Part shown: positions 3,204 to 28,130 of the stretch, one piece after another
Layout: every line of letters begins with the position of its first letter
Position numbering within the stretch: the first letter of the stretch is position 1
The notes under the pieces: model-generated
What the model was told of the DNA's origin: nothing
Databases searched by the model: none
What the model saw: the letters and a program-made list of their open reading frames with translations, nothing else
Made by a program: the position numbers and the translations under genes
From: an uncultured Gammaproteobacteria bacterium
GTDB lineage: Bacteria; Patescibacteriota; Microgenomatia; CAYXHB01; CAZYTL01
Reading direction: 5' to 3'
NCBI GenBank assembly: GCA_964650355.1
Contig: CAZYTL010000002.1
Span: 6,964-70,963 of the forward strand
Length of the DNA stretch: 64,000 bases

Positions 3204-5993
3204 ATGTTAGTCCCGCTTTCCTGGTTAAAACGGTATGTAGAAGTGCCCAAGAGGTTGTCTGAGTTGACGGATAAATTGACTTACGCCGGGCATATGCTGG
3301 ATAAGGTGCTGCAAGTTGATGGTGAGACAGTGATCGACTTGGAACTGAGAGGAAATCGTGAAGATTTATTCGGAATTCTAGGCATTGCCAGGGAAGTAGC
3401 AGCTTTGTTCGATGTGCCGATTAACCTCCCCCAGGAGCCTGACTTGAATAAAATCCCGCAATCGAATTCCGGCAAGAAGGTGAAAGTCGAAGTGCAGGAT
3501 ACTGAATTGATCAATCGGTTCTTTTCTATTGAAATTACTGATCTGAAAGTTGGTCCTTCGCCCAAATGGCTGGAGCAAATTTTAAAACAGATGAGCACTC
3601 CGGCTATCAATAACGTCGTGGATGTCACCAATTACATCATGTTTCTCACTGCCCAACCGTTACACGCTTTTGACAGAAATAAAATTAATCAGGGAAGATT
3701 AATTCTTCGTCAGGGCGACGGAAAGCTAAAGTTCACGACTTTCGAAGGCACCCAAGTGACAGCAACCAAACAAGATTTGATTGCTAGCGATCCGGAAAAA
3801 TGCTTGGGGTTATTAGGGGTAATTGGCGAGAAATACTCCGGAGTAGGCAAAGACACCACTGCGATTTTACTGGAAGGAGGTAATTATAATCAGCCGAGTG
3901 TAAGAAGATCTAGTCGAAGACATAAATTAAGAACAGACGCGGCCTTACGTCTAGAAAAAAATATTGATCCCCTGCTTCCACCATATGCAGTGAAATTGTG
4001 TACCGAGCTGATCTGTAAGCTGGCCCAGGGAAAGGTGGTGGCCGGAAGCGTGGGTGATTACGAGAAAAAAAAGCATCATAATCCGTGGAAAACGATTTTA
4101 TTCACTACTGATGAAGTCAAAAGATTGGGCAATATGCAAGTTTCCCAAGAGGAAGCAAGAAACATTTTCAAACGGTTGGATTTACCGTCCAAATTGATAG
4201 GTGCCAAAGTTGAAGTGCAAATTCCGTGGAGAAGGTCGGATATTGAGGGAGAAGCAGATCTGGTTGAGGAAGTTTTAAGGGTGATTGGCTACGAAAATAT
4301 CCCCAGCGAACCGATCAGCAACCCGGTACCCAAATCTATCGAACCACCGCATTTGCTGTTGGAAGAAAAGGTGAGAGATATCTTGGTCGGACAGGGATTT
4401 AAAGAGAATGTGAGCGATTCGTTCATCAGCCAAGATGACCAGGAATTGTTTTTCGGAAGTCAAAGTCAGGCAATTAAGATTGTTAATCCTACTTCACCGG
4501 AAACTGCTTTGCTGCGCACTTCCCTACTCCCCGCCCAAATAAAATTGGTACAGAAATTATTAAATTTGCACAAGCAAAATATTTCCTGGTTCGAGATCGG
4601 AAAGGTATATTGGGAGACAAAGCAGTCGGATTCTAAAAGTAACTATCAGGAAGAGATTCATTTGTCAGGAGCGATAGTGCTGGGAATAGACACGGAAAAA
4701 TTTTACGGTCGATCTCTGGCAAAAATGAGACGATTGTTAAATTATTTGGGGATTTGGGATTTGAAAGTTCAACCTCAAGCTGATCATTTGCTGATGAGCA
4801 AAGAAGGATCTACAAGTATTTATCAGCAGCAAAGATTGTTAGTCCAGATGGGTTTGTTGCGCACGGACGTAAAACAAGCACTGAATATCCAACCGGATGT
4901 TTTTTTGTTTGATGCTAAGATTGATGATTTATTAAAAGCAAAGACTGAACTGCCTAGAGTGCTAGAATCTGACTATCCTCCCGTCATTGAGGATCTGACG
5001 TTTATGCTGCCTTCGGAAACTTACATTCAACCGGTGATCGATGAGATTTATGGCGTGGATAAATTAATTAATAAAGTCGACTTAGTTGACAGTTATGAAG
5101 ATGCCCGGACCTTTAGGATTTATTACCAAAGCCGGAAAAAGAGTTTAAGCGATAACGAAGTGGAACCAATTCGGATGAGGATTGTGAAGGACTTGGAAGG
5201 GAAATTTAAAGCTAAGTTGAAAGGGGAAATTTTAACAGCTACAAGAAAAACAGAGCAGCAAACTACTCGCCCAAAATCAATAAAAGACAAGAAGGATATA
5301 AAAACGGAAGCAATATATTATTCCAATCCATATCAAAAAGAGCTTGAATGTAGTGTACTCGCTATAGAATCAAAAGGAAATTTGTTAAATGTTATTTTAG
5401 ATAAGACTGTTTTTTACCCACAAGGTGGCGGCCAGCCATCTGATCACGGAATGATTGGCAAAGCCAAAGTCAAACACGTATTAATGTCAAAAGGTCAAAT
5501 AATTCATCAAGTAAAAGGCGATCTAAACGTAGGAGATAAAGTAAAAGCGTTTTTAGACTGGGAACGTCGATATAAGTATATGAAAATTCACACGGCAGGT
5601 CATTTAATTCATGATGCTTTCATGACCATGGTCGAGGATTTAGTACCCATTAAGGCTGACCACGGTGACAATGCTTATCTTGAATATCAGGGCGAGTTAA
5701 AGGTCAATTTAAAATCTCAATTAGAAAGGTTAGTCGATCAATATATTAGTGATGATTTACCTGTAACGACAAAACAGACCACCTATGAAGATTTAGTGAA
5801 AGACTGTCCGTTTGTACCTCAAAACTTGCCTAAAGATAAACCACTTAGGGTGATTAAAATCAACAATTTCCCAACCATGCCAGATGGTGGTGTACATGTC
5901 AAAAGTACTCAAGAGATTGGGTCTGTGGTGATAGAAAGCATCTCCTCTTTTGACAACAAGACGGTGGTCAAATATCGTGTTTTAAATTCTTAG
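3204..5993 (+). CDS. pheT: Phenylalanine--tRNA ligase beta subunit with a C-terminal AlaX-M-like (tRNA_SAD) editing-domain extension
   Basis: 929 aa. The B3/B4 region (NNVVDVTNYIMFLTAQPLHAFD), the B5 region and the FDX-ACB-like region are recognisable. The last ~240 aa carry FYPQGGGQPSDHG, HTAGHLIH and DGGVHV motifs, as in AlaX/AlaRS/ThrRS editing domains. Confidence 0.85.
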   Translation: MLVPLSWLKRYVEVPKRLSELTDKLTYAGHMLDKVLQVDGETVIDLELRGNREDLFGILGIAREVAALFDVPINLPQEPDLNKIPQSNSGKKVKVEVQDTELINRFFSIEITDLKVGPSPKWLEQILKQMSTPAINNVVDVTNYIMFLTAQPLHAFDRNKINQGRLILRQGDGKLKFTTFEGTQVTATKQDLIASDPEKCLGLLGVIGEKYSGVGKDTTAILLEGGNYNQPSVRRSSRRHKLRTDAALRLEKNIDPLLPPYAVKLCTELICKLAQGKVVAGSVGDYEKKKHHNPWKTILFTTDEVKRLGNMQVSQEEARNIFKRLDLPSKLIGAKVEVQIPWRRSDIEGEADLVEEVLRVIGYENIPSEPISNPVPKSIEPPHLLLEEKVRDILVGQGFKENVSDSFISQDDQELFFGSQSQAIKIVNPTSPETALLRTSLLPAQIKLVQKLLNLHKQNISWFEIGKVYWETKQSDSKSNYQEEIHLSGAIVLGIDTEKFYGRSLAKMRRLLNYLGIWDLKVQPQADHLLMSKEGSTSIYQQQRLLVQMGLLRTDVKQALNIQPDVFLFDAKIDDLLKAKTELPRVLESDYPPVIEDLTFMLPSETYIQPVIDEIYGVDKLINKVDLVDSYEDARTFRIYYQSRKKSLSDNEVEPIRMRIVKDLEGKFKAKLKGEILTATRKTEQQTTRPKSIKDKKDIKTEAIYYSNPYQKELECSVLAIESKGNLLNVILDKTVFYPQGGGQPSDHGMIGKAKVKHVLMSKGQIIHQVKGDLNVGDKVKAFLDWERRYKYMKIHTAGHLIHDAFMTMVEDLVPIKADHGDNAYLEYQGELKVNLKSQLERLVDQYISDDLPVTTKQTTYEDLVKDCPFVPQNLPKDKPLRVIKINNFPTMPDGGVHVKSTQEIGSVVIESISSFDNKTVVKYRVLNS

Positions 5994-6211: not shown

Positions 6212-7198
6212 CTATGCTCGCGTTTGGACGACCTGGTAAAGAGGTACTTCAAATTCTTGCTCGGTTCTTCTAAGAATCGGGTTATCGATTGGAAATTGTT
6301 CACTTTGCTTTGGAGGAGTACTTAACCCTATCCCCCCTAACGCTAAATACCTATCAACGTATAATCCCAAATTAGGTTCGCCTTTTTTGGGAAAGTAATA
6401 AGGAGCAAGAATGTTGCTAGGCCATACTCCATTAGGCTGATCTCCTAGCTTAGATAAAAAATAATCAGTTGCTTCGCTAGCCATACCTTGCTCTGCTAAA
6501 GGTTGTGCCGGATCCCAGGCCGAAACAATAATTATCTCTACTTTTTGTTGCCAAGCATCCTTTATTGGCTGCCGCAGTAATCCAATTTGTTCTGGTCCGT
6601 TTAGCATATTGACACGGAAACCTCGGGTATAACTTTTTCCTCCCAAACCAATTTGCGGTGGCCAAGGAGCTTTGATCGTGGCTTCTGTATATCCTCCCAT
6701 TAAGCTCGTCCAAGGAATTGTTACTATGCCAAATGCTCCTGTCTCACCACTACCAGTAATTTTTGCGTGCTGAAATAATACTTCACCTTCCAAATCGATG
6801 GTTGGTTTATATATCGATGTCGAATGTTCCAGATCTTGAATACTAACTGGTAAAACTTGATTTTTATCATCATCTTCTCTAACTTTATCCTTTAATGAAC
6901 TTGGTCTCGCCCTGAGAGGTTGGGGTTCACCAATCAACTCTACATCACCTTTCTTAATCCATTCAGCAAATGGCCCAAGGCGAGTATCTAAATAGAGAGT
7001 AGGAGATCTCTCGACATCTCTTTCAGGTGCTACCCGGGAAGAAGCTAACTCTTGTGAGTCAGGTGTGGGTATTAGACGACCTAATGCAGCACCTGCAGCA
7101 AAGATAGTTCCTGTCCTTATTGCTTCAAGTAGTTGTCTCCTAGTAATTCCTAACCTTGTCTTTTCATCATCAGGAAGGGCATTTTCTGCTTCGGTCAT
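6212..7198 (-). CDS. Secreted protein of unknown function with a twin-arginine (Tat) signal peptide
   Basis: 328 aa. The N-terminus TRRQLLEAIRTGTIFAAGAALG matches the Tat consensus (RRxLL plus an h-region). No recognisable catalytic motifs. Confidence 0.6.
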   Translation of the reverse strand: MTEAENALPDDEKTRLGITRRQLLEAIRTGTIFAAGAALGRLIPTPDSQELASSRVAPERDVERSPTLYLDTRLGPFAEWIKKGDVELIGEPQPLRARPSSLKDKVREDDDKNQVLPVSIQDLEHSTSIYKPTIDLEGEVLFQHAKITGSGETGAFGIVTIPWTSLMGGYTEATIKAPWPPQIGLGGKSYTRGFRVNMLNGPEQIGLLRQPIKDAWQQKVEIIIVSAWDPAQPLAEQGMASEATDYFLSKLGDQPNGVWPSNILAPYYFPKKGEPNLGLYVDRYLALGGIGLSTPPKQSEQFPIDNPILRRTEQEFEVPLYQVVQTRA

Positions 7199-8973: not shown

Positions 8974-9146
8974 GGTTTCTCTGTTTAGGTACCTGGTGGT
9001 ATTAATGAAACACAAATCACTGAATATTATACCGCCTCTGCTTCTAAAGTATCCTCATTGTAGCAGAAATTTCACTTGATGTGTGTTTTTACCAGAATTC
9101 AATTTTCGGGTTTTTAAGTTCGATGAATTTTCTGTACAATAGATCC

Positions 9147-11711
9147 ATGGAGTTGAAAGTAACTTCGGGTGCAAAGAGGTTGATCACCTTGGCTTACCGA
9201 TTGCCTTTGATGTATCTGAATTTAGCTAAGAATTTGCCGTTGGCGATCATGGAGATTTTCGGGCTAAAGGTGCACTTAAGATATTTGTTGGTGCCCATGT
9301 TCCATGATGTGACTTGGGTGGGCAGAGGATTGTCTTTGTTTTTCCGATTGGCGATTTTGTTCAGCGGTTCTCTGCTCTGGTTACTCGTCACGGTGGCGAC
9401 TTGGTTCTTGATACCGGCTTTGATAGTGATGCCGGTGTTGGGAGTGGTACATAATCCTAATTGGTTGGTGATTTGGCTGGTGGTTTTGTTGTTAATAGTT
9501 GCCTGGCGGTTGAGCAGTAAACAACCGAACGGAAAGCTAAAATCCTCTTATAAACCTGACGACGTGCTCCTGGCATTGCCAAGAAATTTAAGTGCTCTGG
9601 TGGCTGGTTATCCCGGAAATCCCGGAAACTGGTGGTCGGACAGACAGGTGCAATTGTGGATGAGCAGAATGGAGATTAACCTGGCTGAATGGGGGAATAA
9701 TGTGGGTTTTTTGAATGAGACGAGTCAGAACGAAAAATTGACCAGAGAAATTTATAATTTAAGCCAGCAATTGGGAACTGATTACCCTGAAATCGGGGAG
9801 GTGATGTGGGCTCTGACTAACGTTGATCAAGCTATTCGAGAGGCATTGGACCAGCGGAACGTAGAGCAAGAAAATGTGGAGGAGTTGGCTAAATGGTTGA
9901 GGAGAGAGATCGGATGGTTTAGGCATTACGCTTTGTGGGACGATCGCTATGAAATCAAGGAACTAGCTGGATTTAATCGGGCAATGACTGGCACGGCAAC
10001 CCCAATTTTAGATGCTTATAGTTTTGATTTAACTATTAATGCCCATAAACTACCCGAGGCAGTTGATAGAGAAGATGCTTATGAATCAGTACTGAAAGTT
10101 TTAAGTAAGAAGGGTAATAACCATGTGATGATCATTGGGGAAACCGGCTGTGGAAAGTCTACGTTTGTGGGAGGTTTGGCTCAATTAATTATGATGGGTA
10201 ATGCTCCTGAACAAATAGCAGATAAAAGGCTGGTCAAATTAGAACCGGGTAGGTTATTAGCAGGAACAAGAACTCAAGGAGAGTTAGCCAACCGGCTATT
10301 GGGGGCAGTCGAAGACATAAAGAAATCAGAAAATATTATTTTATTCATTGACGAGATTCATACTTTGCTAACGGCAGATGAGACTTCAGGAGGATTGAAT
10401 ATGTATTCAGTGTTGGAAGAAGCTTTGTTTAGTAAAGAAATTCAGGTGATCGGAGCGACTTCGATTGAGAATTATAAAAGATATATAGAACCAAACGATG
10501 CGTTCACTAGGTTGTTTGAAGTAGTGAAACTTGATGAACCGGACGATCAGCAAGCATTGATTATCTTAGAAAACGTATCATCAGGACTGGAAGCTCTTCA
10601 CGGTGTGACAATTAGCATGCCGGCTTTGAAAGCAGCCATTGAGCTGTCCAAAAGATACATTCATGACCGGGTGTTGCCAGACAAAGCCAGGTCTCTGTTG
10701 GATGCAGCCTGTATCGACGCTAAAGGGAACGATCTGATTGTCCACTCTGAAGATGTGGCCAAAGTGGTTACCAGGTGGACAGGGGTACCTGTTACCACTC
10801 TGGGTGAGGAGGAGAAAACCAAATTGATCAATTTGGAACAGGAACTGCATCAACGTTATGTAGATCAGGAGGTGGCAGTGAAAGCGGTCGCGGATGCCCT
10901 GCGCAGAGCTCGGCTTGATATTAGAGAACAAAACCGGCCGATAGGGACTTTCATGTTTGTAGGACCTACAGGAGTAGGTAAAACAGAACTGGCCAGACGG
11001 TTATCTGAGATTTATTTCGGCAGCGAATCGGCCATGATTCGGTTGGACATGGGTGAGTTTGGCAGCCTGGAGATGATTCGCAGACTGATTGGCGCTGCTC
11101 CTGGGGAACCGGGATATGGCGAAGGTGGTGAATTAACTGAAAAAGTGAGAAGACAGCCTTCGGCTTTGTTGTTATTAGATGAAATTGAAAAGGCTCATCC
11201 TAAGGTGTGGGATTTGTTGTTACAGGTGATTGACGAAGGTAGATTAGCGGATGCGGCGGGTTTACAAGTAGATTTTACCAACACTATTATTATTACGACC
11301 AGCAATGCGGTGACTGGTTATATTAGCGAACAACTTAAAGCTGGTAAGGAACTGGAGAGTATTAAAGATCGGGTGTTTGATGAGTTGTTAAAAACTTTTA
11401 AGATTGAATTTTTAAACCGCTTTGACGGGATTATTCCTTTTGGGCCTTTGAGTGAGCAAGATATGGAGCAAGTGGTGCGGATTCAATTGGAGCGATTAAC
11501 AGAGAGATTAGAGGAAAAGAAGGTGCAAATTAAATATACGCCAGAGCTAATTCATCAACTGGCAGTTCAAGGAACTGATCCTCGCTTGGGAGCCCGACCG
11601 TTGAGAAGATTAATTCAAGATAAGTTGGAATCGCAATTGGCCAAGATATTGTTGAACCGGGAGAAAGAGAAGGAAATTTCGGTGACCTTGGATGAAAAAA
11701 TTTTGGCTTAA
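9147..11711 (+). CDS. Membrane-anchored Clp/Hsp100-family AAA+ ATPase with two nucleotide-binding domains
   Basis: The N-terminal ~150 aa contain about 3 predicted TM helices. D1 carries GETGCGKST and ILFIDEIH. D2 carries GPTGVGKTELARRL and LLLDEIEKAH, and a C-terminal GARPLRRLIQ sensor. The start is uncertain (9081 or 9147). Confidence 0.8.
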   Translation: MELKVTSGAKRLITLAYRLPLMYLNLAKNLPLAIMEIFGLKVHLRYLLVPMFHDVTWVGRGLSLFFRLAILFSGSLLWLLVTVATWFLIPALIVMPVLGVVHNPNWLVIWLVVLLLIVAWRLSSKQPNGKLKSSYKPDDVLLALPRNLSALVAGYPGNPGNWWSDRQVQLWMSRMEINLAEWGNNVGFLNETSQNEKLTREIYNLSQQLGTDYPEIGEVMWALTNVDQAIREALDQRNVEQENVEELAKWLRREIGWFRHYALWDDRYEIKELAGFNRAMTGTATPILDAYSFDLTINAHKLPEAVDREDAYESVLKVLSKKGNNHVMIIGETGCGKSTFVGGLAQLIMMGNAPEQIADKRLVKLEPGRLLAGTRTQGELANRLLGAVEDIKKSENIILFIDEIHTLLTADETSGGLNMYSVLEEALFSKEIQVIGATSIENYKRYIEPNDAFTRLFEVVKLDEPDDQQALIILENVSSGLEALHGVTISMPALKAAIELSKRYIHDRVLPDKARSLLDAACIDAKGNDLIVHSEDVAKVVTRWTGVPVTTLGEEEKTKLINLEQELHQRYVDQEVAVKAVADALRRARLDIREQNRPIGTFMFVGPTGVGKTELARRLSEIYFGSESAMIRLDMGEFGSLEMIRRLIGAAPGEPGYGEGGELTEKVRRQPSALLLLDEIEKAHPKVWDLLLQVIDEGRLADAAGLQVDFTNTIIITTSNAVTGYISEQLKAGKELESIKDRVFDELLKTFKIEFLNRFDGIIPFGPLSEQDMEQVVRIQLERLTERLEEKKVQIKYTPELIHQLAVQGTDPRLGARPLRRLIQDKLESQLAKILLNREKEKEISVTLDEKILA

Positions 11712-12175
11712 GAGGAGCGCAGTATTTTACCGGCTTTGGTAAAGAAGTGACGGGCTTTGGAAGCCGTATTTTTGAGTTGTTGAGAAACTGATGAGGATTC
11801 CGGTACAGTAGTTGGTGTTTTCCCCTCATTTTGAACATCTGGAGAAGTATTGTCTGGATTCGATTGAAGGACGGATTGAATTTGTTTAACTTCCTCGACG
11901 ACTTCTTCTTTAAGGCTTTGCGGATGATCCTCTATCTGACTGCTTAACTCGTCAAGAATTTCCGGTAGTTGCTCGGCTACTTGTTTGGCCTTTTTTAACA
12001 GATCCTTTTTGATTTTTCCTCCTTGCTTGTGTGCAGAAAGATAGGCAATACCGGCGCCAATCACCGCGCCAGTGAGCACTCCTAAATAAAACTGCTGACG
12101 GTGAGGGGCCGGTTCAGAGGAAGGAGCCGTGGGAGTGGGTTTAGTCATGGGATGATGATTTGGACTTTTTCTCAA
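11708..12175 (-). CDS. YtxH-like membrane-anchored coiled-coil protein
   Basis: An N-terminal glycine-zipper TM (GVLTGAVIGAGIAYL) followed by charged coiled-coil sequence. 155 aa. Confidence 0.4.
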   Translation of the reverse strand: MRKSPNHHPMTKPTPTAPSSEPAPHRQQFYLGVLTGAVIGAGIAYLSAHKQGGKIKKDLLKKAKQVAEQLPEILDELSSQIEDHPQSLKEEVVEEVKQIQSVLQSNPDNTSPDVQNEGKTPTTVPESSSVSQQLKNTASKARHFFTKAGKILRSS

Positions 12176-12422
12176 ATTTTGAAGTAAACAAATTGATGAG
12201 TTTAGCTCCGTCTTTCAGGCCGGTGAGAAAACCGGAAAAAGACACCACGGGCTCGGCCACCGATTGAGAAATCCGGTTGGCATCATCCAAGATTTGGTTG
12301 ATTTTAGTAATAGTTTCCTTTAATTCCTGGAGAATGAGCACAATTTGGTAGCCAATGATGATAAACAGAGCAGTGAGGCTAATGGCGATGATGATACCGA
12401 TGAGTTGGGTGATAGTAAGCAT
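12141..12422 (-). CDS. DUF948-like small membrane protein
   Basis: N-terminal TM (LIGIIIAISLTALFIIIGY) plus a helical tail. 93 aa. It overlaps the downstream gene by about 35 nt. Confidence 0.4.
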   Translation of the reverse strand: MLTITQLIGIIIAISLTALFIIIGYQIVLILQELKETITKINQILDDANRISQSVAEPVVSFSGFLTGLKDGAKLINLFTSKFEKKSKSSSHD

Positions 12423-12620
12423 AAAAGTATATTGGTCTATTGTTTCTCTATTATGTTTATTCTAATTTAACCAATCTATCCAGTAAGAGCAAGGGGTGGT
12501 AGTAAAACCAAGTTCTAATTTGCCAGATGACGAAAGACTGTGTAACTCCTGTTGCTAATGATTTAATTTAATCTGTTTTGCTGTTGACAATTATTGATTG
12601 ATAATTGGAACTTATCAGAG

Positions 12621-13262
12621 TTATTCCTTCAATCTCACCTCAATATGCCTGACCAACGTGGTGGTGTATCCGCGGTTGTTGGTAGCTTCGACAGTAACGG
12701 TGGCAGAGCCGGCAGGTAAGTTTAATTGGCTGGAAAAACTCCCGTCGGCGTTGACAACCACTAACTGACGGTTAACCGATACCACGGCCGAAGGATCAGC
12801 ACTGCCGGTTACTGAAATGTCAGGTCCTAAGACAATTTCCCCTTCCGCCGGAACCAGCACTTCCAATTTAGGCTGAATCAGGCTCTGATATTGAGAGGCG
12901 ATAAAGCCGACAAAAATTAACACTAGGATGGCAATGACTGCTGCCAAAGTAGCTTTAGGGGTCCAGAGAAAGCGACGGTCTGACAAAGGTTTGATCATGC
13001 TTCGAGGAACGATTTGTCCTTGATCATCTTCAGTAAAATCCCGGCGAAATATTGACAAGATGGTTTTAACAGGCAGATTTAAATACTGGGCGTAGTTTTT
13101 GATAAATCCCTTGGCATAGGTACCTGAAGGCAGTAGATGGTATTGATCGTTTTCCAAGGCTTTCAGATATTTAACCCTTATTTTAGTGGCCTTTTCCACA
13201 TCAACCAGGGTGATGGCCTTTTTTTCTCTGGCGGACTTAAGTAATTGACCGGCGGTTTTCAT
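12621..13262 (-). CDS. rodZ: Cytoskeleton protein RodZ-like (XRE-type HTH, TM, C-terminal beta domain)
   Basis: N-terminal HTH (AITLVDVEKATKIRVKYLKALE), a single TM helix and a C-terminal DUF4115-like domain. Confidence 0.7.
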   Translation of the reverse strand: MKTAGQLLKSAREKKAITLVDVEKATKIRVKYLKALENDQYHLLPSGTYAKGFIKNYAQYLNLPVKTILSIFRRDFTEDDQGQIVPRSMIKPLSDRRFLWTPKATLAAVIAILVLIFVGFIASQYQSLIQPKLEVLVPAEGEIVLGPDISVTGSADPSAVVSVNRQLVVVNADGSFSSQLNLPAGSATVTVEATNNRGYTTTLVRHIEVRLKE

Positions 13263-13395
13263 AGCTCAGAGTTGGTAAGATAAAAATTTCTAGAGGCGTC
13301 GTTGATTAATGCGAATGTGTATAGACTGATTTTACCAAAGATGTGGAGGCAGCTTTTGTTTAACCAGGATGAACCGTTTACACTTCAGGAACGGA

Positions 13396-15588
13396 TTAAC
13401 TTGTTGAAGCTTTCCCAGCTATATATTCTGAGATGGCTCCCATGCGCACTTCTCTGGGTTTGGAACCGTCTGCAGGACCGACTAAGCCGGCGGCTTCCAT
13501 CTGATCTAAAATTCTGGCTGCTCGGGCATAGCCGATAGATAATTTACGCTGGAGAAGAGAGGCGGAGGCATTGTCGGAAGTCATTAACCTGACTGCCTGG
13601 TCGAAAAGTTCATCCCTGTCCTCTTCACTCGGGGTACCGGCACCTCTACCCATACCAGAAGTGATTTTGCCCGTAGGAGTAGTGGTGACTTCTTCGGTGT
13701 ATTCCACGGGAACACCCTGGCTCTTGTGGAAATCGATCAAGCGGCGAATTTCATTGTCAGAAATAAAGGTCCCTTGAACCCGGGAAGGCTTGGCTTGATC
13801 CGGGGGAAGAAAGAGCATATCTCCCTGGCCCAGGAGTTTCTCTGCTCCCGGAGTATCCAGAACTACCCGGGAATCAGTCATGGAAGAAACCGCAAAAGCA
13901 ATTCGGGCTGGGATATTGGCCTTGATCAGTCCGGTTAGTACGTCAACCGAAGGTCTTTGGGTGGCAATTACCAGATGAATGCCGGTGGCCCTGGCCATTT
14001 GGGCGATGCGACAGATGAGATCTTCTACTTCGGAAGGGGCAAACATGATAATATCCGCCAATTCGTCGATGACTATCACGATGTAGGGGAGGGCTTGGAA
14101 TCCGGATACTTCATTGTATGCTTCCAAGTTCCTGGCTCCTACTTCGGAGAACAGTTTATAACGTCTTTCCATTTCTTGAGTGGACCACTTGAGAGCAGAG
14201 ATGACTTTTTTAGGATCAACAATCACCGGGGTTAGCAGATGAGCAACACCGTTGTAGCGAGTCAATTCTACCCGCTTAGGGTCGACAAGGATGAATTTAA
14301 CTTCAACGGGAGAGGCCCGGAATAGAATTGTGGCAATAAAGGCATTAATGCACACTGATTTGCCACTGCCGGTTGCGCCGGCGATGAGTAAATGAGGCAT
14401 GCGGGGGAGATTAAAGCTGACCGGATTGCCAGCTACATCTAATCCCAGACCAAAGGTGAGTTTGGATTTAGCCTGTTGCATGGCTTCGGACTGCAGAATC
14501 TGGCGTAATCCTACAAATTCTGGCGATAAATTCGGCAATTCTATCCCCACTAAGGAACGGCCGGGAATAGGCGCTTCGACCCGAATCTGGCCCGTGCGAG
14601 CGGCGAGAGCCAGAGCCAGATCAGAATTTAAGGCGGTGATTTTGGATAATTTGGTACCCAGGGCGACTTCCAAAGCGTATTGGGTGACTGCCGGACCGCG
14701 GTTGACTTCAATAACCTTGGCATTAATGTTAAAAGATTCCAGGGTTCGTTCAATAACCGAGGCGTTCTTTTTGATGTCTCCCCGATCCGCCTTACCAGAG
14801 ATATGCTCATCCAGGAGGGAAAGGGGAGGCAGTTCCCAAATTTGGTTGGTGGGATGAAGATTCATAGTAGGGGAGAGGTCGTCACTGTCTACCGGTGGCT
14901 GATCCGGAACAGGGGTTGGAGCAGTAGAAGAGGCGGATGCGGCACCTGAAGCAGCAGGCTGGTCGGTAGTCCCGGACTCCGGATATTGTCCGCCCTTAAT
15001 AATTAACTCACGCTCTGACGAAGATTTATCAGTAGCTAATTCCTGGTTTTGACCGGTAATGATCATTAAGGTTTTGCGCAGTTGATGAAGAACTTTCATC
15101 AAAGCCAGCACTACTTGATCAAGAGCCAAGTTGAACAAAACCATGGCGCCAATAATTAAAGAACTGAAGAGGAGTAATAAAGTACCGGGAGTAGTGACTA
15201 CTAAAGCCAGGCTTTGCCAGATTTCCGTGCCGACACTGCCTGCTCGGGTTAACCCAGCAAAAGAGATGATTACCAGAATGGTACCTACCAGCACATGAGG
15301 CCGGGTAATCGGCAAGGAGTAGTTGGCCAAGATTAAGCCGATGACAAAGATGAGAAAGGGTAGAAAAATCGCTGTCCACCCTAAATACTGTTGGAGAAGC
15401 TGGTTTAGATGCAAGAGCTGGGAGGTTTGACCGGTGAAGGAGATAGCTATCACCCCGGCAACAACTAGAGTAGCCAAGGCGGCAATGCTCTGGAGGGTGC
15501 CTTTTTTAAGCTTAAGCTTGAAGCTGCGGCGATTTAAGCCAGAGCGCTTGCGCCGTCGACTGACTGAACGTTTTTTCTTTTTAGCCAT
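13396..15588 (-). CDS. ftsK: DNA translocase FtsK/SpoIIIE
   Basis: 730 aa. Basic N-terminus, about 4 TM helices, a low-complexity linker and a motor domain (GATGSGKSVCIN, VIVIDELADI, ATQRPSVDV), plus a C-terminal gamma-like winged helix. Confidence 0.9.
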   Translation of the reverse strand: MAKKKKRSVSRRRKRSGLNRRSFKLKLKKGTLQSIAALATLVVAGVIAISFTGQTSQLLHLNQLLQQYLGWTAIFLPFLIFVIGLILANYSLPITRPHVLVGTILVIISFAGLTRAGSVGTEIWQSLALVVTTPGTLLLLFSSLIIGAMVLFNLALDQVVLALMKVLHQLRKTLMIITGQNQELATDKSSSERELIIKGGQYPESGTTDQPAASGAASASSTAPTPVPDQPPVDSDDLSPTMNLHPTNQIWELPPLSLLDEHISGKADRGDIKKNASVIERTLESFNINAKVIEVNRGPAVTQYALEVALGTKLSKITALNSDLALALAARTGQIRVEAPIPGRSLVGIELPNLSPEFVGLRQILQSEAMQQAKSKLTFGLGLDVAGNPVSFNLPRMPHLLIAGATGSGKSVCINAFIATILFRASPVEVKFILVDPKRVELTRYNGVAHLLTPVIVDPKKVISALKWSTQEMERRYKLFSEVGARNLEAYNEVSGFQALPYIVIVIDELADIIMFAPSEVEDLICRIAQMARATGIHLVIATQRPSVDVLTGLIKANIPARIAFAVSSMTDSRVVLDTPGAEKLLGQGDMLFLPPDQAKPSRVQGTFISDNEIRRLIDFHKSQGVPVEYTEEVTTTPTGKITSGMGRGAGTPSEEDRDELFDQAVRLMTSDNASASLLQRKLSIGYARAARILDQMEAAGLVGPADGSKPREVRMGAISEYIAGKASTS

Positions 15589-21508: not shown

Positions 21509-22600
21509 TTACCAGGTGGGTAGATAGCTTTTGACGTTATCAGTGGTAATATGGAATTTATCTCCTTTACCTTCGACGATTTGACGGGCAACTTTGCGAC
21601 AAACACCGTTAATGGTTCTTTCCAGAGTTCTGATTCCAGCGTCAAAACCCAGAGGGCGAATGATTTTTGGCCAGACCTCCTCATCGATCTCTACTTGTTC
21701 TGGTTTAAGCCCGGAATCTTTTAACATTCTGGGTAAGACGTAGTCCTTGCCAATGTGATATTTTTCGTCATCGGTGTAGGAAGGCATCTGAATAACTTCC
21801 AACCTGTCAAGAACAGCAGTTGAGATTTTGGCGGTATTATTGGCAGTAGCAATGAACAGACATTGGGATAGATCAAAGGGATAATCTATGAAGTGGTCTG
21901 TAAAAGCGTAATTTTGCCCCGGGTCCAGAAGTTCGACCAAAACACCCATGATGTCAGCCCGGGCGTGTTCTGCTACCCGGTCAATTTCATCCAGCAGGAC
22001 GACCGGATTCCTGACTTTGGACTGGCGCATGGCTTTGATAACCCACCCAGGCTCGGCGTCGGGACGGACTCGGGATTGACCACGCAAAGTTAAGGCGTCT
22101 CCCATGCCGCCGAAGGGAATTCTCACAAAAGGTCTGCCCATAGCTTGGGCAATGGAATAGGAAATGGTAGTCTTACCAGTACCTACCAAACCGACGAAAA
22201 ATAAGATGGGAGCCCGCATCATATCGCGGGCAAACTCTTCTTCTGATTTATCTCCGATTTGTTGACGTTTTAAATTCATGACCGCGATGTATTCCAGGAC
22301 CCGATCTTTGATGAATTCTAATCCGTAGTGGTGCTCATCTAAAACTTTTTTCGCATGATTAAGATCTAAAATGTCGTCAGCGCGCTTTGACCAAGGCAGA
22401 TTAGTAATCCAGTCTATGTAGCGGTTAACTTGTTCAAATTCTTGAGAATAAAATCCATATTTAGCCATGCGGCTCAGCCTGCCCAGCATGCCAACGACTC
22501 GCTCTTTCAGGTCTTGAGGGGCTGATGACTTCTCAAGTACGGCTTCTAAATCTTCGACTTCTTTAAAGATATCGGTATCTTTGGAAGAGTTATCAGGCAT
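21509..22600 (-). CDS. Lon-like AAA+ ATPase without an S16 protease domain
   Basis: 363 aa. It has the Lon ATPase core (HYGLEFIKDRVLEYIAV, GLVGTGKTTISYSIAQAMGRPFVRIPFGGMGD, VVLLDEIDRV). It ends 36 nt before the rnj start, with no protease domain and no long Lon N-domain. Confidence 0.75.
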   Translation of the reverse strand: MPDNSSKDTDIFKEVEDLEAVLEKSSAPQDLKERVVGMLGRLSRMAKYGFYSQEFEQVNRYIDWITNLPWSKRADDILDLNHAKKVLDEHHYGLEFIKDRVLEYIAVMNLKRQQIGDKSEEEFARDMMRAPILFFVGLVGTGKTTISYSIAQAMGRPFVRIPFGGMGDALTLRGQSRVRPDAEPGWVIKAMRQSKVRNPVVLLDEIDRVAEHARADIMGVLVELLDPGQNYAFTDHFIDYPFDLSQCLFIATANNTAKISTAVLDRLEVIQMPSYTDDEKYHIGKDYVLPRMLKDSGLKPEQVEIDEEVWPKIIRPLGFDAGIRTLERTINGVCRKVARQIVEGKGDKFHITTDNVKSYLPTW

Positions 22601-23738: not shown

Positions 23739-25130
23739 CTAATCTGTTTTCCATTTAAAGGATAATGAGAAATTTATATCTTGGCTTTTTTCCAACACGG
23801 ATAAAGGAAGAGAGACTTGAATAAAGAGAGGATTTTCCTCCAATAATTGTTTCAATTTAAGAATATCTTCCTGGTGAGGAGCAAAACCTCTCAAAGTCAC
23901 CATTTGAGTGCTTGCTTCGAGTTTGATGTAATTAATGGTTAGTTCGGGAGGCAGAGTGGTGAATAGTTGCTCCACTACCTGGCTGAAAGTCTGTTTTTGG
24001 CGAGAAATTTGCACAGCAGAAACTGCTTGTTGATTGATAATGTTGATTTGGTTTAAGGTGTCAAGACCGCTGGTTTGCTCTTCCTGGAGAGGCTCTGATG
24101 TAGAGGCGGATGATCTGGCGGTAAGAAAAAGAAATCCGCCGCCAATCAGGTTCAAAATGATCAGAAATATCACAGAGATGAATAATAGATGACGTTTTAA
24201 TTGATGGGAGCTAGATTGACTGTAGTCGTATTGGACATGGGGCGGAATCAAGTTGATGGTTCTGTCGTCTTCAGGAGGGTTAGTGGGTATCTGGGTTAAG
24301 GAATAACCCACTACTTGTGCAGGAGGAAGCTTGGCATTGGTTTTGATGGGCTCGGCAGGAATGTCCGGTGGCAAAACTCCTGATAATTGATCCTGGAGGC
24401 TACCAGTATAAAGGATTTGTTTAATTTCCTGACGGTATTTTTTGGCGTAATAACTGATCAGGTCTTTGATTACTTGTGATAGGTCCTGGCTTAATTGCCC
24501 ACCGGTGGGTGACTGACTGACCACGCTAAGATTAATGCTTTGATTGGGGTTGATAACGATTAATGTTGACGTCGTATCGGCATCAATTACTAAGGTAGGT
24601 TGTTTAACAGGGCTGGCGAGACGGCTGAGGGTCAAGCTGGATGTTTCTACGGCTAAGGGAATGACCCCGGCGGAGTTAAGCGCAGCAAAGTATTTGTCCA
24701 ATGCGGTCTTGGGAACAGCGGCCACCTGGATCAGTTCACTGGATTCGGGCACCCAACGCCAATCAAGATAAAGTTGATCTATGGGATAGGGCAATTCATG
24801 TTCGATTTCAATGGCAATGCGATCCTGAGTCTCGGCCGTAGTCTGATGTTTAAGTTTGAAGGAACGAATAAAGGCAATATGTTCTGGAATGCCCAAGGTG
24901 ATGAATTTATCAGATAAGGAAGCTTGCTTTAGGAGTTGTTGCAAGATTTGAGTAAATTTTTCCGGTTGCTCTAGCTCTCCTTTATCAATGATATCCGGCT
25001 CTAGAGGCACTTCTATATGCTTTTTAACTGTTTGCCTACTGGCAATGGTGAGGCTGATTTTATCCGGAGTGATGTGTAAACCCGGATGACTAGTGACTGA
25101 GGGAACGGAACGTTGAGAGGATTTTTTCAT
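23739..25130 (-). CDS. pilM: PilM-PilN fusion (actin-like PilM domain, TM, PilN-like domain)
   Basis: 463 aa. The N-terminal ~300 aa are an actin-like fold typical of PilM. These are followed by a TM helix (LLFISVIFLIILNLIGGGFLFL) and a PilN-like periplasmic part. Confidence 0.7.
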   Translation of the reverse strand: MKKSSQRSVPSVTSHPGLHITPDKISLTIASRQTVKKHIEVPLEPDIIDKGELEQPEKFTQILQQLLKQASLSDKFITLGIPEHIAFIRSFKLKHQTTAETQDRIAIEIEHELPYPIDQLYLDWRWVPESSELIQVAAVPKTALDKYFAALNSAGVIPLAVETSSLTLSRLASPVKQPTLVIDADTTSTLIVINPNQSINLSVVSQSPTGGQLSQDLSQVIKDLISYYAKKYRQEIKQILYTGSLQDQLSGVLPPDIPAEPIKTNAKLPPAQVVGYSLTQIPTNPPEDDRTINLIPPHVQYDYSQSSSHQLKRHLLFISVIFLIILNLIGGGFLFLTARSSASTSEPLQEEQTSGLDTLNQINIINQQAVSAVQISRQKQTFSQVVEQLFTTLPPELTINYIKLEASTQMVTLRGFAPHQEDILKLKQLLEENPLFIQVSLPLSVLEKSQDINFSLSFKWKTD

Positions 25131-25167
25131 AGATCTTATTGGGGAGAAAAAATAGCGATAAGATGAA

Positions 25168-26394
25168 TTATCTGCCCGGGGTGTTGGCTTCGATGCCTCC
25201 CACCAAGCTATAGATGGGAGCGATAACTGCTAAAACCATGGCTCCTACGCCAACGCCTACCAGGAGTAAGAGGATAGGCTCCAGGACAGCGGTAAAGTTG
25301 TTAAGCGTTGAGTCAACTTCCTGCTCGTAATGGTCGGCAAGTTCACTGAGCATGGAATCTACGCTGCCGGTTCTTTCACCGGTGGCCACCATGCGCATCA
25401 CCATATGGGGAAAGATTTTTTTGTGGACGCGCATCACATCCGAGAGGGCTTTACCTTTTTGGACTTCGTCTCTAAAAATAGTAGCTAATGTATTGAACTT
25501 CGGTTGAGACAGAGATGACACCACAATATATAAGGCTTCGTTAATTGATACTCCGCTGGACAACAGAGTGGATAAGGTGCGACAAAATCTGGCCAGGTCT
25601 AATTCGTCAATCAGCTTCTGAATGGCAGGAAGCAGACTTACAATTTTGAGGGCGATTTGTCGTCCCTGACGCTGGGTCATTCCGACGATTAATAAACCTA
25701 AACAGGCGAACAGAGCGGAAAAGACCAAAATCGAATTCTGGCTGATAAATAATCCCCCTTCCAAGACTACGCGGGAAAAGGTAGGCAGGCTGACATCCAT
25801 TTGTAAAAAAATTGGGGCAATCTTGGGCAGCACAAAAAAGACCAAAATTAGACCGACTCCGCCCATCGCAGACACGATGATGATGGGATACATCATGGCG
25901 CTTTTGACTTTTTGTTTTAGCTTGTATTCCGAATATAATTGTCGGGCTAAATAATCCAATGATTTTGTCAGAGTACCTGATAATTCTCCAGCCTGGATGA
26001 TGGAGATCATCGTTTTATCAAACGAATCAGAATACTTGGTCAAGGCAGTAGAAAGAGGTTTACCTTCTTGTAGTTGCTGCTGGGTATCGTGAAGGATAGT
26101 TCTTAGTTTAGGGATTTGGCTATCCTGTCCATAGACTTCAATAGCTTCGGGTAAAGGCAAGCCGGCATTAACCATGGTGGCTAAATAACGGAATAAAGTA
26201 GCTTTTTCCAGCAATGGTACCCCTTTGCGAAAACTAATCCCTAATTTCTTTTTTTCCCGGACTTGGGTAATACTCTCCACATGGTATCCCTGGCCGCCTA
26301 GTAATCTTTTGGCGTCTTCAATGTTGGTGGCCACAATGGTGTCTTCTACGGTCTGTTTATCTCGGTCGGTAGCTTTATAGGAATAGACGGGCAT
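25168..26394 (-). CDS. pilC: Type IV pilus platform protein PilC (GspF family)
   Basis: 408 aa with two GspF repeats and three TM segments. Confidence 0.85.
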   Translation of the reverse strand: MPVYSYKATDRDKQTVEDTIVATNIEDAKRLLGGQGYHVESITQVREKKKLGISFRKGVPLLEKATLFRYLATMVNAGLPLPEAIEVYGQDSQIPKLRTILHDTQQQLQEGKPLSTALTKYSDSFDKTMISIIQAGELSGTLTKSLDYLARQLYSEYKLKQKVKSAMMYPIIIVSAMGGVGLILVFFVLPKIAPIFLQMDVSLPTFSRVVLEGGLFISQNSILVFSALFACLGLLIVGMTQRQGRQIALKIVSLLPAIQKLIDELDLARFCRTLSTLLSSGVSINEALYIVVSSLSQPKFNTLATIFRDEVQKGKALSDVMRVHKKIFPHMVMRMVATGERTGSVDSMLSELADHYEQEVDSTLNNFTAVLEPILLLLVGVGVGAMVLAVIAPIYSLVGGIEANTPGR

Positions 26395-26441
26395 AGTATA
26401 AAAAAATAATTAACTAAGACATCTTTTAATTTTTGACTTTG

Positions 26442-28130
26442 CTACTCGATATCTCTGACTGCTCTGATAACTTCTTCTACAGTGGTTAAACCGGAACTGG
26501 CTTTGTCCAGACCGTCTTCGATCATGTTGGTCATTCCTTCTTCACGGGCTTGAGCAAGGATTTGATCTCCAGAAACTTTTTTGGTAATGAGCTCCCGAAT
26601 TTTAGCGCTCACTTCTAAGACTTCAAAGATGCCGATTCTGCCTTTATATCCTGAGTAGTTGCATTCTTCACACCCCGGGCTTTTAAAGATGGTGACTTTT
26701 TTGACTTGAGGACGATATTTGGAGAACAGATTCAGGGCTACCTGATCAGGTTCCGAACGTTTGATGCAAACTGAGCAGAGGCGGCGAACCAGACGCTGGG
26801 CGACTACCATGTTGACGGTAGAAGCAACTAAGAAGCCTTCTGCTCCCATGTCCAAAAGTCTGGGAATAGCGCCAGCTGCGTCATTAGTATGCAGAGTGGA
26901 GAGTACTAAATGCCCGGTGAGTGAAGCGTGGATAGCCATTTCCGCGGTTTCTTGATCCCGGATTTCACCCACCATGATGATGTTAGGGTCATGGCGGAGC
27001 AAAGCTCTAAGTCCTGCGGCAAAAGTAAGTCCTGTATCCGGGTTGACCTGGATTTGATTTACCCGGTGAATGCCATATTCAATGGGGTCTTCTACCGTAC
27101 AGATATTAACTTCGATGGAGTTAAGGATGTTAAGAACGGAGTAGAGAGTAGTGGTTTTTCCTGAACCGGTGGGGCCAGTGACTAAAATCATTCCGTGAGG
27201 TTTTTTAATATTCTGGCGAAGCAGATTTAACTGGATCCCGGTGAGACCGATTTCCTCTAGACTCAAAGGCCGAGTGGATTCGAATAACAGCCTCATGACT
27301 ACGTTTTCTCCGTAAAACGAGGGGATGATGGATACCCGTAGAGCCAAGGCTTGGTCTTCGTAGGCATATTTGAAACGTCCGTCTTGAGGCACCCGATGTT
27401 CATCAATTTTCAGTTGGGAAAGGATTTTGATCCGGGCAACAATGGCTGGTTGTACTTGTTTGGGTAATTTGATGATGTCACGCAACCGGCCATCAATACG
27501 GAAACGAATCGCCAAGGCGTCATGAAGAGTTTCGATGTGGATATCTGAAGCCAGTTCGGCGATGGCATATTCAAGGATGGTGTCCAGGACTTTGATCACC
27601 GGCAAATCAACTGCAGCTTTGGCAATGTCTTCCTCGTCTTTGACTTTGGCTGTTTGTTCGATGTTGGCAGAGAGAATTTCAGCGAATTCTTTTTTGATGC
27701 TCTTTTTATACTGATTAAGAGCCAGAGTCAGATCCGGAGGAGAAATATAGTGAGGAATAATTTTTTTCTTGGTGCGGCGGCGGATTTTTTCCAGGGCTTC
27801 GAAATCGCTAGGATCTTCCATGGCCACCCGAAGTTCCTGATCGGTTTCCTGAAAAGGAATCATCCGGAAACTGCGGGCTAGTTTTTCTGGTACCAGATCC
27901 AAAATTTCTAAAGGAATACTTTTGGACCTGAGGGAAATAAAGGGCACGTTCAAGTGCTCGGCAATCAGCTGGCCCAAGGCCTGTTCAGAAATTAACCCGT
28001 GAAAGATTAAGATATCTGAGACTCGTTTTTCCAGAGCTTCAGAAGCCTGTAAAGCTTTTTGGAAATCTTCTTCGGTAACAAATCCGGAAGCAACAAGAAT
28101 GGTTTTCAGTTCATCGGGCAGGATGGCCAT
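26442..28130 (-). CDS. pilB: Type IV pilus assembly ATPase PilB (GspE family)
   Basis: 562 aa. N-terminal GSPII_E_N-like region, Walker A (GPTGSGKTTTLYSVLN), Asp box, Walker B and His box. Tetracysteine motif CSVC...CEEC. Confidence 0.9.
   Translation of the reverse strand: MAILPDELKTILVASGFVTEEDFQKALQASEALEKRVSDILIFHGLISEQALGQLIAEHLNVPFISLRSKSIPLEILDLVPEKLARSFRMIPFQETDQELRVAMEDPSDFEALEKIRRRTKKKIIPHYISPPDLTLALNQYKKSIKKEFAEILSANIEQTAKVKDEEDIAKAAVDLPVIKVLDTILEYAIAELASDIHIETLHDALAIRFRIDGRLRDIIKLPKQVQPAIVARIKILSQLKIDEHRVPQDGRFKYAYEDQALALRVSIIPSFYGENVVMRLLFESTRPLSLEEIGLTGIQLNLLRQNIKKPHGMILVTGPTGSGKTTTLYSVLNILNSIEVNICTVEDPIEYGIHRVNQIQVNPDTGLTFAAGLRALLRHDPNIIMVGEIRDQETAEMAIHASLTGHLVLSTLHTNDAAGAIPRLLDMGAEGFLVASTVNMVVAQRLVRRLCSVCIKRSEPDQVALNLFSKYRPQVKKVTIFKSPGCEECNYSGYKGRIGIFEVLEVSAKIRELITKKVSGDQILAQAREEGMTNMIEDGLDKASSGLTTVEEVIRAVRDIE

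Follow-up and report, generated by a model that had tools for sequence, protein, structure and literature searches.

Hsp100 ATPases are the textbook case of proteins in which tyrosine pore loops draw a polypeptide through a ring. In E. coli ClpB, the conserved substrate-contacting tyrosines are Y251 and Y653; Y653 is essential for disaggregation, a Y251A variant is still partly active, AAA2 is the main threading motor, and the arginine fingers are R331, R332, and R756 (PMC6593972). Two adjacent AAA-1 arginines are reported to be essential to oligomerization and activity (PMC4239642). Torsins, which are Clp/Hsp100 relatives with a membrane-associated N-terminus, have no aromatic pore loops, which processive unfolding requires (PMC5425593). 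Here, we analyze a gene for a predicted membrane-anchored, two-ring Hsp100 protein (most likely 9147..11711, + strand) in a 64,000-nucleotide (64-kb) stretch of DNA, hereafter the window, that was deposited as part of an uncultured Gammaproteobacteria bacterium and is placed by GTDB in the Patescibacteriota (assembly GCA_964650355.1, contig CAZYTL010000002.1, positions 6,964 to 70,963).

The protein is a catalytically intact Hsp100 that has neither pore-loop tyrosine. We consider this its most interesting feature, and it was absent from a preliminary description of the locus. Our preferred reading, to which we assign a probability of roughly 0.5, is that the gene encodes a ClpP-independent, D2-driven remodeling ATPase at the cytoplasmic face of the membrane, one that does not use canonical tyrosine-paddle threading and is reminiscent of Torsins.

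The AAA+ core and its motif losses

All features of the gene described below are on the + strand. Pfam, hydropathy, and phmmer positions refer to the longest open reading frame (ORF), of 876 amino acids; other residue numbers refer to the 854-amino-acid form that begins at Met23 of that ORF, and those of reference residues are from E. coli ClpB. Pfam places AAA at 349-461, AAA_lid_9 at 489-548, AAA_2 at 619-782, and ClpB_D2-small at 790-866, so that the protein has the tandem AAA+ modules with Walker A and B motifs, and the C-terminal D2-small domain, of the class I Clp/Hsp100 core. The D1 module (10002..10724, residues 286-526) was delimited from the AAA and AAA_lid_9 matches, a motif table, and Foldseek, and the D2 module with D2-small (10740..11708, residues 532-854) from the AAA_2 and ClpB_D2-small matches. 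The full-length AlphaFold2 (AF2) model also contains two complete AAA+ modules (predicted local distance difference test score, pLDDT, 85.2; predicted template modeling score, pTM, 0.71). Foldseek matches it to ClpC, ClpC1, and ClpB protomers of hexameric cryo-EM structures, with template modeling scores (TM-scores) of 0.73-0.80 and 42%-43% identity.

Motifs were compared in a reference alignment of family members with E. coli clpA and clpB, plus ClpC and ClpB matches, which was extended to 49 full-length relatives; the pattern of losses described here holds across these relatives. D2 is canonical throughout: Walker A GPTGVGKT (10962-10985), Walker B LLLLDEIEKAH (11166-11198), sensor-1 TTSN (11295-11306), the arginine finger NRFD (11415-11426), and sensor-2 GARPL (11589-11603). 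The equivalents of K611, E678, N719, R756, and R815 are each present in 49 of 49 members.

The pore loops are another matter. Neither the K-Y-R-G of D1 nor the G-Y-V-G of D2 is present. In the D1 loop, AGTRTQGEL (10260..10286), the tyrosine is replaced by Thr376, and the Y251 column is aromatic in none of the 49 members (Thr in 17, Ser in 14), whereas the references have Tyr, except for Phe in one ClpB reference (P0065). In the D2 loop, GAAPGEPGYGEGG (11091..11129), the canonical G-Y-V-G has become G-E-P-G, so that Glu stands in place of Y653. Tyr occupies the Y653 column in two of 49 members and the position is deleted in 10, the D2 loop being variable or deleted across the family.

D1 retains its nucleotide-binding motifs in the window protein, with Walker A GETGCGKS (10137-10160) and Walker B ILFIDEIH (10338-10361). 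The Walker A lysine is kept in 49/49 members, the following Thr/Ser (Ser in the window protein) in 43/49, and the Walker B glutamate, also kept in the window protein, in 37/49. At the arginine-finger site, where ClpA, ClpB, and ClpC have (E/A)RRFQ, the window protein has TRLFE (10506..10520). The R331 equivalent is thus still Arg, as in 28 of the 49 members, and the R332 equivalent is Leu; not one member has Arg there. Across the family as a whole, one or both D1 arginine fingers are gone, and D1 erodes further in distant relatives. The preliminary description had credited the protein with complete D1 and D2 modules, which holds for all of the catalytic D2 motifs and fails for the two pore-loop tyrosines and one D1 arginine finger.

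In one distant sub-branch (P0136, P0141, P0151), the D1 Walker A reads GKD instead of GK[ST], and Walker B reads YLND or FAPE instead of hhhDE. Judging by these substitutions, D1 is probably catalytically dead there, with D2 still canonical.

A very short linker, IDAKGNDLIV (10713..10742), connects D1 and D2 at the point where ClpB and ClpC have the coiled-coil M-domain. In phmmer alignments to PDB sequences, the aligned part of D1 ended at residue 544 and that of D2 began at residue 552, leaving a junction of ~8 residues; the same interval is ~130 residues in Thermus thermophilus ClpB and ~70 in ClpC. Measured from LPDKA to the D2 Walker A, the spacing is 96 residues in the window protein, compared with 101 in ClpA, 158 in ClpC, and ~220 in ClpB, and it is 94-110 in most of the 49 members. 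The exceptions are P0010, P0011, and P0179 (124-136), owing to low-complexity inserts. The full-length AF2 model has no coiled-coil insertion. Pfam, the alignments, and the spacing therefore all bear out the earlier statement that this is a two-ring AAA+ protein with a short linker and no long M-domain. As a separate observation, the inserts in P0010 (L089, 8001..10640) and P0011 (L082, 10001..12658) consist of 35-40 Ser/Pro/Asn-rich residues at the D1-D2 junction, exactly at the M-domain site of ClpB and ClpC.

The equivalent of the ClpP-docking loop, LKAGKEL (11334..11354), is without a hydrophobic-Gly-hydrophobic tripeptide. Here KAGKE aligns with SIGLI of ClpA, and ClpC has LGF. The secondary structure assigned by DSSP to the AF2 model shows a 4-residue turn at this position, between helices 723-731 and 736-747. 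In the phmmer comparison with PDB sequences, the query has a gap opposite the ClpP loop of ClpC (aGFGGssdGQD), and no gap is needed to align this part of D2 with T. thermophilus ClpB. No member of the 49 has the tripeptide. The claim that no such tripeptide is present was thus correct, and what had been described for one protein, a membrane-tethered Hsp100 unable to dock ClpP through the known loop, applies to all family members.

Among characterized Hsp100 proteins, the window protein scores highest with ClpB (NCBIfam ClpB, 576 bits; PDB 1qvr, 475 bits). It resembles ClpB/Hsp104 in having two AAA+ rings, D2-small, identical D2 catalytic motifs, and no ClpP-docking loop, and its core fold has a TM-score of ~0.76 to E. 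coli ClpB protomers. However, 576 bits is under half of the TIGR03346 equivalog cutoff (1232). Unlike ClpB/Hsp104, the protein also has no M-domain coiled coil, which is the element that couples to DnaK/Hsp70, has lost the two pore-loop tyrosines as well as a D1 arginine finger, and carries its highly diverged N-domain behind a membrane hairpin and a novel motif. With ClpA, it shares the direct D1-D2 junction, and ClpC and ClpC1 protomers are among the best structural matches noted above; in addition, public annotations of family members say ClpA or ClpC. Against a ClpA or ClpC assignment are the missing IGL or (V/L)GF loop, the missing pore-loop tyrosines, the membrane anchor, the absence of a detectable ClpS- or MecA-type signature in the N-domain sequence, and a ClpA score of 489 bits against a cutoff of 993 (TIGR02639). 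ClpC and ClpE also differ in having the short M-domain that contacts MecA/McsB (spacing 158 vs. 96) and the (V/L)GF ClpP loop. The ClpV/TssH score, 503 bits, is likewise far below its cutoff of 885 (TIGR03345).

The N-terminal membrane module and the start of the gene

Upstream of D1, Pfam detects nothing: there is no match in residues 1-300 of the 876-amino-acid ORF, and none for the N-terminal module even at E ≤ 1 in the 10 members that were scanned. An AF2 model of the region built from a 12-sequence alignment (pLDDT 85.4, pTM 0.76) consists of a long helix (7-37), a helical hairpin (57-101 and 104-123), and an eight-helix bundle (137-258). The long N-terminal helix (9165..9260, residues 7-38; AF2 pLDDT ~72-88) is amphipathic and net basic, and is predicted to be cytoplasmic or interfacial. 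It is followed by the family signature motif VPMFHDVTWVGRGLSLFFR (9291..9347, residues 49-67), which is placed at the membrane interface directly before the first membrane helix. In a column profile of 23 diverse members, Pro50, Gly59, and Arg67 of the motif are invariant and Asp54 is conserved at 96%.

Transmembrane helices were assigned from hydropathy, charge distribution, conserved hydrophobicity, and AF2. Residues 83-148 (876-amino-acid numbering) are strongly hydrophobic, with Kyte-Doolittle values of up to 2.4. Membrane helix 1 (9348..9449, residues 68-101) is supported by hydropathy, the column profile, and AF2 helix 57-101. It contains an uncharged hydrophobic run (71-101) with no K, R, D, or E, and a Pro96 that is nearly invariant in the family profile. 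Membrane helix 2 (9462..9512, residues 106-122) is supported by the hydrophobicity and charge profile and by AF2 helix 104-123. A short, variable loop of about 5 residues (102-107) lies between the two helices. In the 23-member profile, a second uncharged run (108-122) is followed by a basic stretch and a conserved Pro127, and the N-terminal flank has 8 K/R versus 3 D/E. Because basic residues occur on both flanks and the loop is only ~5 residues long, these profiles and the model indicate a predicted two-helix hairpin with an N-in/C-in topology, both ends being cytoplasmic. This topology fits the ATP-dependent domain, which has to be in the cytoplasm. The preliminary description was right to propose N-terminal membrane helices, given how strongly hydrophobic the region is, although it envisaged several, and hydropathy, charge, and AF2 favor a two-helix hairpin.

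Residues 137-258 (9555..9920; AF2 pLDDT ~80-95) form what appears to be a strongly diverged, Clp_N-like eight-helix bundle. When the bundle was searched against the PDB using Foldseek, nearly all of the top 48 matches were Clp/Hsp100 N-domains (ClpC, ClpC1, ClpB, Hsp104, and PfHSP101/HSP101), with target TM-scores of 0.45-0.60. In hhalign comparisons, a match to repeat 2 of the Clp_N alignment was obtained (E = 1.5e-5), and in the MAFFT alignment the region falls beneath the Clp_N repeats of ClpA, ClpB, and ClpC. There is no Pfam match to Clp_N (PF02861) in the window protein or in any of its closest homologs (P0001-P0012). Because all three approaches lead to Clp N-domains, they point to a very diverged Clp_N-like domain having been retained behind the membrane hairpin. 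The suggestion that the protein lacks a canonical Clp N-domain therefore holds for sequence-level (Pfam) detection only, and needs to be amended for the predicted fold.

The N-domain is joined to D1 by a Trp-rich motif, W..R....W...Y.LWD.RY....L[AG]G.NRA.TG..TP.LD (9894..10013), in which Trp250 and Trp264 do not vary among close family members. The motif was also found in two Saccharibacteria-type relatives (L047 and L075), discussed below.

The gene itself is a single uninterrupted ORF (9081..11711, +), 876 amino acids long when counted from GTG in the ORF listing. The most likely coding sequence is 9147..11711 (854 amino acids plus stop), starting at an ATG that corresponds to Met23 of that ORF. 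Alternative upstream starts are the ATG at 9123, which is used in the public gene call (P0001; 862 amino acids, 100% identical to the window protein), and the GTG at 9081, which gives the longest ORF. We favor 9147 as the likely start because the Met aligned with residue 23 is the first residue in most of the 12 aligned homologs (P0001-P0012), and residues 1-22 show no conservation in their alignment. No ribosome-binding site was clear enough to separate the three candidate starts, and promoter and terminator signals near the gene were no more numerous than in shuffled sequence. In the homology search, just 12 clusters (P0001-P0012, 38%-100% identity) span the N-terminus; the matches that rank after them are ordinary ClpC or ClpB proteins and cover 35%-65% of the query. 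It had been considered that the N-terminal segment might be a separate small ORF. This is not the case: in at least 49 full-length homologs, the segment continues in frame and without a break into the AAA+ part.

The family, its phylogeny, and the surrounding genes

An exhaustive search of 1.84 billion representative proteins with a hidden Markov model of the N-terminal region returned 360 clusters at E ≤ 1e-3, 82 at E ≤ 1e-10, and nine at E ≤ 1e-30. Many of the matches are proteins of 830-880 amino acids with the same architecture. Matches of ~100-130 amino acids were considered as a possible stand-alone family of small proteins, and this was rejected. In our judgement they are probably mostly fragments at contig ends, because fragments of 109 and 247 amino acids share a 90% cluster with a full-length member (P0128), and because several stop inside the hydrophobic region.

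Named members include [quoted passage not shown] and “AAA family ATPase” or [quoted passage not shown]; Joint Genome Institute labels for some members are ClpA or ClpC. For comparison, the RNase J encoded in the window is closest, among named sequences, to that of Candidatus Amesbacteria (52%-55% identity). As far as source names show, the lineage is confined to the Patescibacteria, or Candidate Phyla Radiation (CPR). We define it by a P-[ML]-[FWY]-x-D...G-[RH]...R motif, a two-helix transmembrane hairpin, the Trp-rich junction, a D1-D2 core that has neither an M-domain nor a ClpP loop, and pore loops lacking aromatic residues, each of which was found in the window protein. We found no description of such proteins in the literature searched, in which subscription journals were covered only in small part; a TM7x transcriptome paper refers chiefly to Clp genes of the host.

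A scan of GTDB genomes with the back-translated patterns FVGPTGVGK and LF[IV]DE[IV]HT[LM] recovered ordinary ClpC, ClpB, and ClpA loci, and only two that are relevant here. These encode a second membrane-anchored, Clp-like type, at 1091..3637 in L047, from a Saccharibacteria metagenome-assembled genome (MAG), and at 1693..4218 in L075, from an unclassified MAG. Like the window protein, this type has two N-terminal transmembrane helices, Clp_N-like repeats, an NRAWTARPTPxLD junction, no M-domain, and degenerate pore loops. Unlike the window protein, it is without the N-terminal helix and the PMFHD motif, its Clp_N repeats are easier to recognize, and its D1 is degenerate (Walker A GKE in L047, Walker B YIPSIHD in L075). 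In a bootstrapped neighbor-joining distance tree (568 core columns, few outgroups), the family and the Saccharibacteria type form one clade, with the latter nested inside, apart from the ClpA, ClpB, and ClpC references (100/100).

Directly downstream of the gene is a convergent block (11708..15588, −) that encodes a YtxH-like protein, a small hydrophobic ORF, a RodZ-like HTH_25 protein, and FtsK. The block recurs beside the two closest relatives on long contigs (P0006 and P0004; block-bearing loci L087 and L088), but is not beside P0007, P0008, P0010, or P0011. On one side, the neighbors are a divergently transcribed HlyD-family adaptor and an ABC ATPase. A conserved operon partner was rejected, as no gene neighbor is kept across distant members. 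Because the convergent block is common to close relatives and not to distant ones, we read it as residual synteny, and the Hsp100 gene as stand-alone. There is no clpP and no second Hsp100 gene within the 64-kb window (tblastn). No type VI secretion genes are among the annotated neighbors, the window having been annotated non-exhaustively. Rfam gave no family at the gathering threshold on either strand of the 64 kb, and no tRNA, rRNA, or riboswitch. A role as an anti-phage defense ATPase was also rejected. PADLOC returned partial matches only (PDC-M37B and DolB, E = 1e-31 to 1e-26, ~150-240 residues) that are generic to the D2 core, and there are no partner genes.

Several other genes in the window deserve mention. 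A 362-amino-acid ORF (21509..22600, −) is a Lon-type AAA+ module on its own (positions 252-571 of the 795 of NCBIfam lon; Pfam AAA and Lon_lid), without the Lon N-domain or the Lon_C protease domain. No adjacent ORF resembles the protease half, making this a second truncated proteostasis ATPase of the same genome. At 3204..5993 (+), a 929-amino-acid fusion joins the phenylalanine-tRNA ligase beta subunit, PheT (residues 30-672), to an AlaX-type alanyl-tRNA editing domain (residues 701-915). A type IV pilus cluster (23739..28130, −) includes a PilM-like gene (23739..25130) and a PilB-type assembly ATPase (26442..28130); such clusters are typical of CPR genomes, and this one and the RNase J affinity both fit a Microgenomates-like CPR organism. 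Finally, a 328-amino-acid ORF (6212..7198, −) that adjoins the ABC ATPase/HlyD-like pair has a twin-arginine-like N-terminus (GITRRQLLEAI, then a run of hydrophobic residues), and neither Pfam nor PADLOC matches it.

Modes of action and their implications

The architecture is well supported, and from it we conclude that the protein probably works differently from any characterized bacterial Hsp100. The mechanism is what we infer from the loss of motifs. The protein would form a ring at the membrane, on its cytoplasmic side, in which D2 would be the only, or at least the principal, ATP-hydrolyzing motor and D1 chiefly a nucleotide-binding assembly ring. Tethering to the membrane may aid oligomerization and perhaps offset the weakened oligomerization through D1, by analogy with YME1L, in which the membrane anchor is reported to drive hexamerization (PMC5095350). 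The protein would act independently of ClpP and, because there is no M-domain, would be uncoupled from DnaK/Hsp70. With its tyrosine paddles lost and a D2 loop that evolution has been able to dispense with, the protein probably does not thread polypeptides processively. More likely, ATP-driven ring movements would remodel, assemble, or disassemble a membrane-proximal partner, which the Clp_N-like domain and the conserved interfacial motif may recognize.

Overall, the protein would then be a bacterial functional analog of the Torsin-type, pore-loop-less Hsp100 relatives. The two have in common their Hsp100 kinship, an N-terminal hydrophobic membrane segment, and the absence of aromatic pore loops, but the resemblance is functional only. 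Torsins are single-ring, lumenal proteins without an arginine finger of their own (it is supplied by LAP1 or LULL1), whereas the window protein is bacterial and cytoplasmic and has two rings and an intact D2 arginine finger (as do 49/49 members). It is not a member of the Torsin family. FtsH, YME1L, and Msp1 are also ring ATPases tethered via N-terminal transmembrane helices (in FtsH, likewise two per subunit). However, they have a single ring of the classical AAA clade with aromatic pore loops, fused in FtsH and YME1L to an M41 peptidase, whereas the window protein is an Hsp100 double ring with no peptidase domain and no aromatic pore loops.

The preliminary description had proposed a dedicated membrane-protein unfoldase or disaggregase. 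As stated, this is not supported, as it assumes canonical threading, and the Y251 and Y653 equivalents are Thr and Glu. Its other suggestion, a novel partner, is conceivable. The unfoldase is still the most serious alternative to the remodeling ATPase, although we consider it unlikely: a membrane-tethered but otherwise conventional Hsp100 that would draw membrane or membrane-proximal proteins through its central channel, extracting or unfolding them, by means of substitute pore-loop residues. The double-ring Hsp100 fold is intact, and an anchor in the membrane is characteristic of extraction machines, FtsH and Msp1 among them. Several observations weigh against our own reading and, in part, for this one. 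Some AAA+ rings do translocate with non-aromatic loops. In the window subfamily, the pore loops have retained their canonical length, the D1 loop is conserved as K/R-T/S-Q-G-E-L, including the Lys/Arg that precedes the lost tyrosine, and the window protein has a Tyr at the position of ClpB Y656, three residues past the lost one (GEPGYGEGG). Given these retained features, weaker and modified engagement of a substrate in the channel is conceivable. Also to be set on this side are that our mechanism goes beyond the architecture itself, that the individual matches behind the Clp_N-like domain are weak (Foldseek E = 0.06-1; hhalign probability 79%, over 44 columns only), and that the 100/100 support for the clade may be inflated by long-branch attraction in a distance tree with few outgroups.

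What tells against threading is the fate of the loops across the family. The position of ClpB Y653, without which there is no disaggregation (PMC6593972), is Glu here and Tyr in only two of 49 members. The Y656 column is Tyr or Phe in only 15 of 49 (the references have Tyr, or Phe in ClpA), and the Y251 position is never aromatic. A loop that could be deleted in many members is unlikely to have been the working substrate grip of the ancestral function.

A second alternative, which we regard as improbable, is that the twelve membrane helices of a hexamer, together with the interfacial motif, form a pore that is gated or fed by the AAA+ rings. Such a self-contained, ATP-driven translocase would move proteins, or possibly another polymer, across the CPR membrane, with HSP101 in PTEX and Bcs1 as analogs. 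In its favor are the strictly conserved hydrophobicity of the two helices in each subunit and the invariant Pro, Asp, Gly, and Arg at the interface. Small polar residues in place of bulky tyrosines would widen the axial channel, and the lineage occurs only in CPR bacteria, which are episymbiotic and poor in transporters. However, the external loop is only ~5 residues long and variable, the Clp_N-like domain between the membrane and D1 might block the axis, and no conserved secretion-related neighbors were found.

Delivery of substrates to ClpP, or to another peptidase, via a non-canonical docking surface is very improbable. The segment at the docking position is as long as that of ClpA in the alignment and has a conserved Gly, but it is modeled as a non-protruding 4-residue turn between helices that aligns gap-free with the ClpB sequence, the tripeptide is in 0/49 members, the window has no clpP, and the pore loops, which would have to feed a protease, are degenerate. 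The last possibility, that the protein is a non-functional Hsp100 remnant, would account for the combined loss of pore loops, D1 arginine finger, M-domain, and ClpP loop, but is effectively refuted by the pattern of conservation. The ORF runs uninterrupted for ~850 amino acids in dozens of lineages that have diverged from one another, all 49 members keep the D2 catalytic residues, there are new invariant motifs particular to the family (PMFHD..GR..R and that of the Trp-rich junction), and the AF2 models are confident.

The remodeling ATPase can also be cast in a bolder form, in which this is a lineage-wide, membrane-integral Hsp100 derivative of the CPR that has wholly abandoned polypeptide threading, with D2 gating or feeding a twelve-helix channel (a self-contained translocase relevant to episymbiosis) or driving a Torsin-like remodeling of assemblies in the membrane or envelope. 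We think it rather doubtful that so strong a statement will hold. If it were true, this would be the first bacterial pore-loop-less Hsp100 machine.

For annotation, the motif evidence contradicts the current labels that describe these proteins as Clp protease subunits. ClpA, ClpC, and “ATP-dependent Clp protease ATP-binding subunit” are arguably wrong for members of the family, and elsewhere the databases are generic. What is new is a lineage of Hsp100 proteins that carries a membrane module of a new kind and has consistently lost the canonical elements for handling substrates. The CPR superphylum conserves an Hsp100 with an invariant D2 site, yet one from which the ClpP loop, M-domain, and tyrosine paddles have all gone. 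If it is active, then either aromatic paddles are not required for threading or the Hsp100 scaffold now serves a non-threading function at the membrane. Until now, the idea of a non-threading Hsp100 has come up mainly in connection with the eukaryotic Torsins, for which the mechanism is still debated, and a bacterial, two-ring, probably self-sufficient analog would be an experimentally easier system. The lineage is also relevant to the biology of CPR bacteria, whose reduced genomes keep few proteostasis genes.

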